Shown in pieces: positions 6,259 to 7,319 of a stretch of 43,188 nt of DNA (the stretch's first letter is position 1; each line of letters begins with the position of its first letter). The DNA comes from a virus. The notes beneath the pieces were generated by a model, which was given only the letters and a program-made list of their open reading frames with translations, did not search any database and was not told where the DNA came from. Made by a program: the position numbers and the translations under genes. The stretch is from IMG/VR virus record IMGVR_UViG_3300031772_000075. One strand, given 5' to 3'.

Positions 6259-6723
6259 ATGATCGCTTACTGCCGAGGGGACGCCACTCGTCCGGTTGAT
6301 GACGAGGGCATCATAGCCCACGTTTGCAACAATGCCGGAGGCTGGGGGGCCGGTTTCGTTCTTTCGGTCTCCAGGCGGTGGCCTGGGCCAGAGCGCCAGT
6401 ACCGCGAGTGGGCCCGCTCAGGGCATCACGAGGGCTCCGGGGAGTTCAAGCTCGGAAACGTCCAGCTCATCCCCGTTGGAAAGAAGCTGTACGTGGCGAA
6501 CATGGTGGCGCAGGACGGATTCGGTGAGGGCGGAAGGATCCCTCTCCGCTACGACGCTCTCGAAAAGTGCCTTCTGACCCTGAACGACCTGGCGAACGGG
6601 ACTATGCTCTCCATCCACATGCCTCGCATTGGATGCGGACTCGCAGGAGGAACCTGGGGAGAGGTCGGCCCTCTTGTGGAGAAGTCCATCTCCGGTGTCA
6701 ACGTGTACGTCTACGACCTATGA
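6259..6723 (+). CDS. macro-domain (ADP-ribose binding / processing) protein
   Basis: IIAHVCNNAGGWGAGFVLSV resembles the macro-domain N-terminal Gly-rich phosphate-binding loop. SIHMPRIGCGLAGGTWGEVGPLV resembles the second conserved loop. ATG at 6259; the stop overlaps the next gene's start (ATGA). Confidence 0.6.
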   Translation: MIAYCRGDATRPVDDEGIIAHVCNNAGGWGAGFVLSVSRRWPGPERQYREWARSGHHEGSGEFKLGNVQLIPVGKKLYVANMVAQDGFGEGGRIPLRYDALEKCLLTLNDLANGTMLSIHMPRIGCGLAGGTWGEVGPLVEKSISGVNVYVYDL

Positions 6724-7319
6724 CGAAGGCTGCGGTCCCCAGGTTCACCTTCCCCGACTGCGTCGGGTCGTGGGTGTCTGCCGCGGACCTCGGCTCGTGC
6801 GTCGTCTCCGTCATGCAGGCGAAGGACTCACCCCCGATGGTCTACCTGCACCGGAAGTCCGGGCCTGACGACCGGATTCTGTCCGCGTGGCCGACGCAGC
6901 TCCGGGACGGGCTCCACTTCCGGGCGTCCCCGGGGCCGAACGAGGTCTTCCATCTGGCCCTCAGGAACACGCCGCGCCGTGAGGCAAGCATGTCCGTGAC
7001 GGCGGCCCTGATGGCCACCGTCGCCGTGCACGCGGCCGGCCCGGAGTCTGACAGGGTGGCCTGGATGAAGAAGGTCCACGGACAGGTTCTGGCCGCCATC
7101 AAGAAGAACGGTGCGGAGGCCCTTTCGGGGGTGGGCCCGGTCTTCCTGGAGCTCAACAGGGTGACGGCGGACCTCGTCGACAAGGCGCTCGGAAGGGACG
7201 TGGGCGAGGCCGTGGCCCGCGTCCGAAAGGACTTCATGTTCCTGGTCGACCGGATATCCGAGGAGGACGTTGTACGTTTGTGGCGTGAAACGATCGTGGA
7301 GAAGACCCACGAGCATTGA
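6720..7319 (+). CDS. hypothetical protein (199 aa), translationally coupled to the macro-domain gene
   Basis: ATG at 6720 overlaps the macro-gene stop (ATGA). High GC3 and protein-like composition. The tabulated ORF start at 6567 is in another frame over the macro gene and was rejected. Confidence 0.5.
   Translation: MTKAAVPRFTFPDCVGSWVSAADLGSCVVSVMQAKDSPPMVYLHRKSGPDDRILSAWPTQLRDGLHFRASPGPNEVFHLALRNTPRREASMSVTAALMATVAVHAAGPESDRVAWMKKVHGQVLAAIKKNGAEALSGVGPVFLELNRVTADLVDKALGRDVGEAVARVRKDFMFLVDRISEEDVVRLWRETIVEKTHEH

Follow-up and report, generated by a model that had tools for sequence, protein, structure and literature searches.

An AdfM-like macrodomain predicted to erase DNA ADP-ribosylation in the replication module of uncultivated very large phages

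The IMG/VR virus record IMGVR_UViG_3300031772_000075 (hereafter the window, meaning the whole stretch of 43,188 nucleotides (nt) that was analysed) carries at positions 6,259–7,319 a gene for a stand-alone macrodomain of 154 amino acids (aa), which runs directly into a gene for an uncharacterised protein of 199 aa. We favour a joint reading of this region that we hold to be reasonably probable: the macrodomain would be an AdfM-like anti-DarT factor in a phage replication module, the 199-aa protein would belong to the replication block and not be a partner of the macrodomain, and the macrodomain gene would have been inserted, together with a NUDIX gene, in one sub-lineage. Homology, conserved catalytic residues, synteny and co-occurrence are the observations that went into this reading, and from them we infer the in vivo target (DarT2-modified DNA) and a role for the 199-aa protein at the replisome. 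An earlier reading of the same DNA, made from the letters and without database searches (the sequence-only reading), had likewise linked the macrodomain to DNA ADP-ribosylation and counter-defence, a claim that fits its closest characterised relatives, SCO6735 and T4 Tk.4 (AdfM); it had also cast the 199-aa product as a cognate partner, and there our results point the other way.

A stand-alone macrodomain related to SCO6735 and T4 Tk.4

The 154-aa protein aligns end to end with SCO6735 (PDB 5E3B, E 1.2e-40; 52% identity over the full length) and BT1257 (PDB 2FG1, E 5.5e-38), with weaker matches among PDB sequences to the macrodomain of CHD1L/ALC1 (2e-5), to TARG1 (1e-3) and also to Thermus DarG. 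It further matches phrog_335 (E 1.3e-31), a family that carries the PHROG label ‘phosphatase’, as well as the PADLOC model of DarG (E 1.2e-7). Because of the full-length PDB matches and the match to phrog_335, membership of the macro superfamily is settled, despite a sub-threshold score with Pfam PF01661 (Macro; E 0.075, 13.4 bits vs a cutoff of 22), and the macrodomain call of the sequence-only reading was borne out, the class being ALC1/TARG1/DarG-like.

After correction of the SCO6735 numbering for the 20 tag residues in the PDB chain, V22, N24, Q85 and G127 of the window protein align to V25, N27, Q85 and G128 of SCO6735, i.e., all four residues are kept. SCO6735 removes DarT-made ADP-ribose from thymidine in single-stranded DNA (ssDNA), both in vitro and in cells, and rescues cells from DarT; this activity depends on Asn27, Gln85 and Gly128, with Val25 implicated, and Gln85 stands where DarG and TARG1 have their catalytic Lys (PMC9411070). 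The same enzyme also acts on protein substrates (PMC9411070). Judged by these alignments, the window macrodomain is of the Gln-type SCO6735/BT1257/T4-Tk.4 (ALC1-like) subclass and a new, divergent member of the AdfM/SCO6735 group, which supplies the subfamily classification that had been suggested as a check. We predict that it is an AdfM-like hydrolase of thymidine-linked DNA ADP-ribose.

Phage relatives of the macrodomain are widespread: tblastn returned homologues in 841 phage records, including tk.4 of T4-like phages, PaP1-like Pseudomonas phages, large Streptomyces phages and jumbo coliphages, and in some of the large Streptomyces phages the homologue adjoins an annotated ADP-ribosyltransferase (ART) or Sir2 gene. 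Knockout of tk.4 sensitises T4 to DarTG2, and tk.4, the one T4 gene required for growth on DarTG2 hosts, was named adfM (2025 preprint, bioRxiv 10.1101/2025.11.20.689424). In PhiKZ-like phages, a stand-alone DarG2-like macrodomain, also called AdfM, removes DarT2 marks from DNA (2026, PMC13309987). The window gene has the sequence-level hallmark of this class, as it encodes a phage-borne stand-alone macrodomain homologous to an experimentally defined AdfM (Tk.4).

As a DarG antitoxin proper the protein was rejected. The NCBIfam DarG equivalog NF048014 scores 24.7 bits, far under its cutoff of 250 (E 1.3e-5), over model positions 20–146 only, which are its macro part; the C-terminal DarT-binding domain is lacking and no DarT gene lies next to it. 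Pfam finds neither DarT (DUF4433) nor any ART in the neighbouring MVP-like, 199-aa, 88-aa, zinc-ribbon, 160-aa and NUDIX products (listed below), and PADLOC finds none in the four downstream products.

A replication region of very large, high-GC phages

The window, at a guanine-plus-cytosine (GC) content of 62.6%, is the replication/recombination region of an uncultivated lineage of very large, high-GC phages. Its features around the macrodomain gene, and further ones mentioned in this text, are as follows.

308–1183, plus strand: conserved 291-aa protein with no detectable relatives, always preceding DnaB
1185–2714, plus strand: replicative helicase of the DnaB type, a conserved anchor on the upstream side of the module (Pfam DnaB_C, 9.4e-18)
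2742–3290, minus strand: NUDIX hydrolase, MutT-like (Pfam PF00293, 1.6e-13; phrog_1198)
3478–6201, plus strand: 907-aa major-vault-protein-like (MVP-like) protein (Pfam MVP_shoulder, 1.3e-24; Vault_3, 8.4e-7)
6208–6254, plus strand: intrinsic-terminator-like hairpin and T run, between the MVP-like and macrodomain genes
6259–6723, plus strand: 154-aa stand-alone macrodomain (PDB and phrog_335 matches)
6720–7319, plus strand: 199-aa protein of a rare uncharacterised family, a putative replication-module protein
7331–7597, plus strand: 88-aa ORFan, its ATG start lying inside a longer TTG open reading frame (ORF)
7597–8244, plus strand: 215-aa DnaG-type zinc-ribbon protein (CHC2 zinc-binding domain and three-helix bundle)
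8231–8713, plus strand: 160-aa conserved Cys-rich protein (p160; phmmer matches in relatives)
8643–9713, minus strand: full-length DnaJ, convergent
15641–16435, plus strand, and 37032–38132, minus strand: two sigma-70-type factors (one weak; one with regions 2, 3 and 4)
28945–30303, minus strand: RecA homologue
27586–28935, minus strand: SbcC/AAA_23-like ATPase
23234–24205, minus strand: pyroglutamyl peptidase (Peptidase_C15, 1.4e-29)

A family-A DNA polymerase and a dCTP deaminase are also encoded in the window, with RecA, the SbcC-like ATPase and the sigma-70-type factors further on. Relatives of the 199-aa and zinc-ribbon genes with the same module were found on metagenomic contigs of 141, 222, 274 (IMG/VR), 337, 382 and 436 kb; this contig family is phage-like, up to 436 kb in length, and one relative is an IMG/VR viral contig. 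Among cultured phages the lineage has no detectable kin: the DNA of 6259–8244 showed no similarity to any of 50,697 phage records, tblastn of the 199-aa and zinc-ribbon proteins against cultured phages matched nothing, and the 199-aa family is absent from the reference genomes of 185,579 species. A search for related loci with a narrow alignment of the 199-aa family yielded one viral contig, one metagenome contig and zero reference genomes.

The MVP-like protein has a weak SPFH match and a collagen-like Gly-X-Y stretch near residues 430–470, and orthologues are present in both a close relative (L001, 6400–9135) and a distant, lower-GC relative (L009, 5303–7900); this homologue of the eukaryotic major vault protein lies inside the phage replication module. 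Inserted between the NUDIX and macrodomain genes, this gene is context and not part of the macrodomain’s function.

The 199-aa gene recurs with replication genes and not with the macrodomain

The pairing of the macrodomain and 199-aa genes was assessed with hidden Markov models (HMMs) and phmmer on all fetched loci, together with their gene tables. The loci, numbered L001 onwards, compare with the window as follows.

Window: macrodomain, NUDIX and 199-aa genes present, NADAR absent; macrodomain and 199-aa genes overlap by ATGA
L001: macrodomain, NUDIX and 199-aa genes present, NADAR absent; macrodomain and 199-aa genes overlap by GTGA
L002–L004: macrodomain, NUDIX and 199-aa genes present, NADAR absent; 2-nt gap from the macrodomain to the 199-aa gene
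L005 and L006: macrodomain, NUDIX and 199-aa genes present, NADAR absent; ~550 base pairs (bp) with an antisense HNH endonuclease gene between macrodomain and 199-aa genes
L016 (short contig): macrodomain and 199-aa genes present and overlapping, then a different gene
L007 and L008: macrodomain and NUDIX absent, NADAR present elsewhere in the module, 199-aa gene present and abutting the zinc-ribbon gene
L009: macrodomain, NUDIX and NADAR absent, 199-aa gene present after an MVP-like gene and before the zinc-ribbon gene
L011 (1.9-kb contig): macrodomain and NUDIX absent; DnaB, 199-aa family and zinc-ribbon genes follow one another directly, with 4 nt of overlap
L013: macrodomain, NUDIX and NADAR absent, 199-aa gene present and overlapping the zinc-ribbon start by 11 nt
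L012: macrodomain, NUDIX and 199-aa genes absent, NADAR present directly upstream of the zinc-ribbon gene, in the 199-aa slot

Four lineages (L007/L008, L009, L011 and L013) thus carry the 199-aa gene without a macrodomain. The gene adjoins the zinc-ribbon gene in six of the nine lineages that carry it (abutting or overlapping in L001, L005, L007, L011 and L013) and shares the module with it in two more, and DnaB lies upstream of it in every lineage with enough flanking sequence, directly abutting in L011. The genes that keep recurring beside it are those for the zinc-ribbon protein, the 160-aa protein and DnaB, and not the macrodomain gene.

The macrodomain-bearing lineages are each other’s closest relatives, their zinc-ribbon proteins being 70–76% identical vs at most 62% for the rest, and for this reason the macrodomain was probably acquired once, along with NUDIX, just upstream of the 199-aa gene. 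Genes for homing endonucleases occur at several places of the module in the relatives. The antisense HNH gene between the macrodomain and 199-aa genes occupies ~9395–9990 (minus strand) in L005 and ~5398–5990 (minus strand) in L006, a GIY-YIG gene follows the 199-aa gene in L002 (10654–11544), and free-standing LAGLIDADG genes are found in L013 (1938–2831 and 4921–5718); the DnaB gene of L009 (2278–5151) contains a LAGLIDADG domain and is about double the usual length, which is consistent with an intein.

The survey also bears on the idea of a split DarG, in which a two-domain DarG2 (~340 aa) would have its equivalent in two proteins, the 154-aa macrodomain erasing the mark and the 199-aa protein binding and blocking DarT in the manner of the DarG C-terminal domain or of ICP1 AdfB. 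Gene order (macrodomain, then ~200 aa) and the summed length of 353 aa do resemble DarG, the window, L001 and L016 all have overlapping start and stop codons, and there are precedents in the second, DarT-binding domain of DarG2 and in AdfB, which acts by binding DarT. DarG models, however, cover the macrodomain protein only and leave the 199-aa protein uncovered, no match links the latter to the DarG C-terminal region, and its family occurs without a macrodomain, all of which makes a split DarG highly improbable in our view.

NUDIX and NADAR genes in the same module

The NUDIX gene is found in exactly the macrodomain-bearing loci among those long enough to tell (the window, L001, L002–L004 and L005/L006) and is absent from the macrodomain-less ones, a co-occurrence that may reflect a single acquisition. 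A function as ADP-ribose pyrophosphatase was considered for its product and not substantiated, PDB and family matches being generic MutT-like. NADAR-domain proteins (PF08719, phrog_1017) are in turn encoded in macrodomain-less sister lineages (4693–5178 in L007/L008; 8433–8987 in L012), with none in the examined part of the window. Phage NADARs (AdfN) reverse the guanine ADP-ribosylation made by DarT1 and counter DarTG1 (PMC11825919). Since two macrodomain-less sister lineages carry NADAR in the same module, DNA de-ADP-ribosylation is supported as the selected activity.

These two genes are also where a role in the phage’s own metabolism, in place of counter-defence, has to be weighed, with the macrodomain clearing adducts made by a phage ART or processing ADP-ribose-1''-phosphate or O-acetyl-ADP-ribose, and NUDIX degrading the released ADP-ribose. 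The ‘phosphatase’ label of phrog_335, the one-to-one co-occurrence of NUDIX and macrodomain in the loci examined and the activity of SCO6735 on protein substrates would all suit such a role. On the other side, no ART turned up in the part of the window’s proteins that was scanned, NUDIX matches only at the generic MutT-like level, and its co-occurrence may stem from a single event, given that the macrodomain-bearing lineages are closest relatives; moreover, the NADAR swap in sister lineages points to DNA bases as the site of de-ADP-ribosylation, and the anti-DarTG2 phenotype of T4 Tk.4 has been demonstrated. We consider a metabolic role unlikely.

Gene junctions and expression

Both plus-strand ORFs of the sequence-only reading exist, and the macrodomain and 199-aa genes overlap, as it had described, by ATGA at 6720–6723 (ATG at 6720–6722, TGA at 6721–6723; sequence GACCTATGACG). 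GC by codon position is of coding type, with third-position values (GC3) of 0.73 for the macrodomain ORF, 0.78 for the 199-aa ORF and 0.73–0.82 across all five ORFs. Two further coupled small genes had been proposed downstream, and this stands in part: the stop of the 88-aa gene and the start of the zinc-ribbon gene do overlap by 1 nt (TGATG, 7595–7599), but the 88-aa gene is not overlapped by the 199-aa gene, its ATG at 7331 lying 11 nt past the 199-aa stop and 8 nt downstream of a GGAG (7320–7323). The zinc-ribbon gene overlaps the 160-aa gene by 14 nt (8231–8244). The 3' ends of the 160-aa gene and the convergent DnaJ gene share 71 nt, and L001 and L002 have a similar convergent overlap, of 47 and 68 nt, respectively. 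Genes commonly overlap their neighbours in these phages: by a count from coordinates, 6 of 13 adjacent pairs on the same strand do so in the related 141-kb contig. The ATGA junction cannot therefore be taken as a sign that the macrodomain and 199-aa genes work as a pair.

The hairpin upstream of the macrodomain gene (6208–6244) has a 16-bp stem with 12 GC pairs and is followed by CTGTATTTTG. The macrodomain ATG lies 5 nt past the end of the T run, a trivial correction to the 2 nt given earlier for a terminator that is indeed present. No sigma-70-like promoter was found in 3000–10000, and the hairpin lies so close to the macrodomain start that neither a canonical promoter nor a Shine-Dalgarno sequence would fit between them. 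Because this strong terminator-like hairpin abuts the start, the run from the macrodomain to the zinc-ribbon gene would need read-through, an unrecognised promoter or non-canonical expression.

The 199-aa protein is a rare family with a confident, unmatched fold

The 199-aa gene is real and conserved, with nine homologues at 44–78% identity. A profile search among 1.84 billion cluster representatives retrieved 24 members of 62–226 aa, without fusions, and every one comes from a phage-like metagenomic contig, the longest of them 436 kb. The protein itself has zero matches in Pfam, PHROGs, NCBIfam, PADLOC and PDB sequences; 26 family members run against Pfam and PHROGs gave only scattered single-member noise, and a PDB profile search with the 26-sequence alignment was empty even at E ≤ 10. 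The AlphaFold2 (AF2) model is confident (predicted local distance difference test, pLDDT, 85.6; predicted template modelling score, pTM, 0.77) and consists of an N-terminal helix, a five-stranded antiparallel sheet and five helices that form a C-terminal helical domain. Its last two helices are less confident; conservation in the family peaks there, in EE[DE][VI]xxxWRE..V..H (C-terminal motif EEDVVRLWREAIVEKTH), and a [DN]GxH turn in the sheet is conserved as well. A Foldseek search of the model against BFVD was empty at E ≤ 0.001.

The structure prediction that the sequence-only reading had suggested for the 6720–7319 product, with a view to ART-fold or DUF4433-like similarity, found none, neither profile nor fold matching ART or DUF4433-like toxins. 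This result, together with the survey above, decides how much weight should be given to a toxin-antitoxin or effector-immunity pair, in which the macrodomain would be the antidote to a 199-aa effector that is toxic through ADP-ribosylation or in some other way. Macrodomains are known as antitoxins (DarG), and the homologous gene of some Streptomyces phages adjoins, as mentioned, an annotated ART or Sir2 gene. Yet no ART, DUF4433, Sir2 or other toxin signature was detected in the 199-aa protein with Pfam, PHROGs, NCBIfam or PADLOC, a confident model exists that has no ART-fold match, and a toxin would not persist without its antidote, as the 199-aa gene does in four lineages. Such a pair strikes us as very improbable. 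The cognate-partner proposal likewise lost its footing, as the protein has no family match or ART fold, occurs without a macrodomain in the four lineages and is separated from it by an HNH gene in one lineage. Two outcomes had been named beforehand as speaking against a macrodomain-partner unit, namely an unsupported macrodomain and a partner from a housekeeping family; the macrodomain is well supported and the 199-aa protein falls in no such family, but co-occurrence still speaks against the unit.

Zinc-ribbon, 160-aa, 88-aa and 291-aa neighbours

The stand-alone primase zinc finger of the sequence-only reading was recovered: the 215-aa protein contains the CHC2 zinc-binding domain of DnaG, without a catalytic domain. 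No TOPRIM/RNA-polymerase domain was detected in it (TIGR01391, 22 bits vs a cutoff of 283), residues 130–205 form three helices (a three-helix bundle) without a specific match, and its full-length homologues measure only ~200–220 aa. No primase catalytic domain is recognisable near the gene. The 291-aa protein ahead of DnaB could be the missing catalytic subunit, a possibility for which family scans gave no supporting evidence.

In all lineages whose sequence reaches far enough downstream, phmmer places the 160-aa gene after the zinc-ribbon gene. Its product is 31% identical to the L007 orthologue, has the motif C..C..C..PxCWE[HY] and matches no family in Pfam, PHROGs, NCBIfam or PADLOC. The 88-aa ORF, which has a Shine-Dalgarno sequence and a coding-like GC3 of 0.74, is a lineage-specific ORFan inserted between the otherwise adjacent 199-aa and zinc-ribbon genes: it is absent from all related loci examined, and among 5.8 billion clusters its sole full-length match is itself, the other match being a 59-aa fragment that is identical over 34% of the query.

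A proposed role for the macrodomain and the replication block

The favoured reading can be put as a sequence of events. A host DarT2-type toxin would ADP-ribosylate thymidines of phage ssDNA exposed at replication forks, and the macrodomain would hydrolyse the resulting ADP-ribosyl-thymidine, which would keep the forks running and disarm abortive-infection toxins of the DarT2 type; with its gene inside the replication module, it would be co-expressed with the replisome. The conserved block around it would comprise DnaB, the 199-aa gene, the DnaG-type zinc-binding protein and the 160-aa protein, in which the 199-aa protein would most probably work with DnaB or the zinc-ribbon protein, e.g., as a helicase loader or helicase-primase adaptor, with its conserved C-terminal helical hairpin as a putative docking element. 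One sub-lineage would have gained the macrodomain and NUDIX genes immediately ahead of the 199-aa gene, and the ATGA overlap would be a consequence of compact gene packing.

Several points weigh against this reading. The 199-aa gene directly follows the macrodomain gene in five macrodomain-bearing lineages, with overlap at three of these junctions (the window, by ATGA; L001, by GTGA; and L016). L012 is without the 199-aa gene and yet has the zinc-ribbon, p160 and DnaB genes, so that the 199-aa gene must be dispensable, replaced or located elsewhere in that genome. The replisome role suggested for the 199-aa protein is drawn from gene order. Searches by homology and by fold linked the protein to no loader, primase or initiator; for helicase loaders and initiators, neither profile nor fold similarity was found to DciA/DUF721, lambda P, G39P, DnaD, gp59 or DnaC. 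SCO6735-type macrodomains also remove protein-linked ADP-ribose, so the enzyme of the window may naturally act on protein or RNA. The window phage has been linked to neither a host nor a DarT gene. Finally, the macrodomain gene comes after a strong terminator and lacks an obvious Shine-Dalgarno sequence or promoter, and its expression level is uncertain.

A more far-reaching proposal, which we put forward tentatively and rate as possible rather than probable, is that the 199-aa protein, the zinc-ribbon protein with no catalytic domain and the 160-aa protein form an unrecognised helicase-loading/priming sub-complex, confined to a clade of uncultivated, very large phages that also have an MVP homologue. 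The EEDVVxxWRE hairpin would then dock DnaB, and a macrodomain or NADAR eraser would be placed in the module for co-expression with the replisome.

If the favoured reading holds, the AdfM class of phage anti-DarT2 erasers extends to uncultivated large, high-GC phages. The swap of a macrodomain (thymine) for a NADAR (guanine) eraser in one replication module would be comparative evidence for DNA ADP-ribosylation as a widespread pressure on phage replication beyond model hosts. The tempting toxin-antitoxin reading of the 199-aa gene is removed as unsupported. Its family, which is rare, structurally unmatched and travels with DnaB and a primase zinc finger that has no catalytic domain, becomes a candidate new replisome accessory factor defined by synteny.

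Comparison with known systems

The zinc-ribbon protein shares the CHC2 zinc-binding domain with DnaG primase but, unlike it, has a C-terminal three-helix bundle in place of the TOPRIM RNA-polymerase domain. The macrodomain is of the same ALC1-like class as the macro domain of DarG from DarTG2, from which it differs in having neither the DarT-binding C-terminal domain nor an adjacent DarT gene. With AdfN, the NADAR orphan antitoxins directed against DarTG1, it would share the strategy of an orphan de-ADP-ribosylase in a phage, whereas the fold is another and so is the base (guanine for NADAR vs thymine for the macrodomain). PhiKZ gp104 (the chimallivirus AdfM) is, like the window protein, a stand-alone jumbo-phage macrodomain with the same proposed job on DarT2 ADP-ribose; the two are only 20% identical (pairwise E 5e-4), the position of Gln85 in the window protein is held in gp104 by a catalytic Lys of the DarG type (K78), and PhiKZ AdfM is imported into the chimallin phage nucleus. 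SCO6735 and BT1257 are single-domain proteins of ~155 aa, as is the window macrodomain, but they are bacterial chromosomal genes, while the predicted hydrolase of the window is phage-encoded inside a replication module. T4 Tk.4 (AdfM, found by HIDEN-SEQ) is distant in sequence and belongs to an unrelated phage lineage, and its gene has other neighbours, tk.4 lying between vs and tk in T4-like phages; it is nonetheless a stand-alone phage macrodomain of phrog_335, with ~30% identity over 99% of the query, and has in common with the window protein both a Gln at the catalytic-lysine position and the PRIGCG(L/I)AGG loop.

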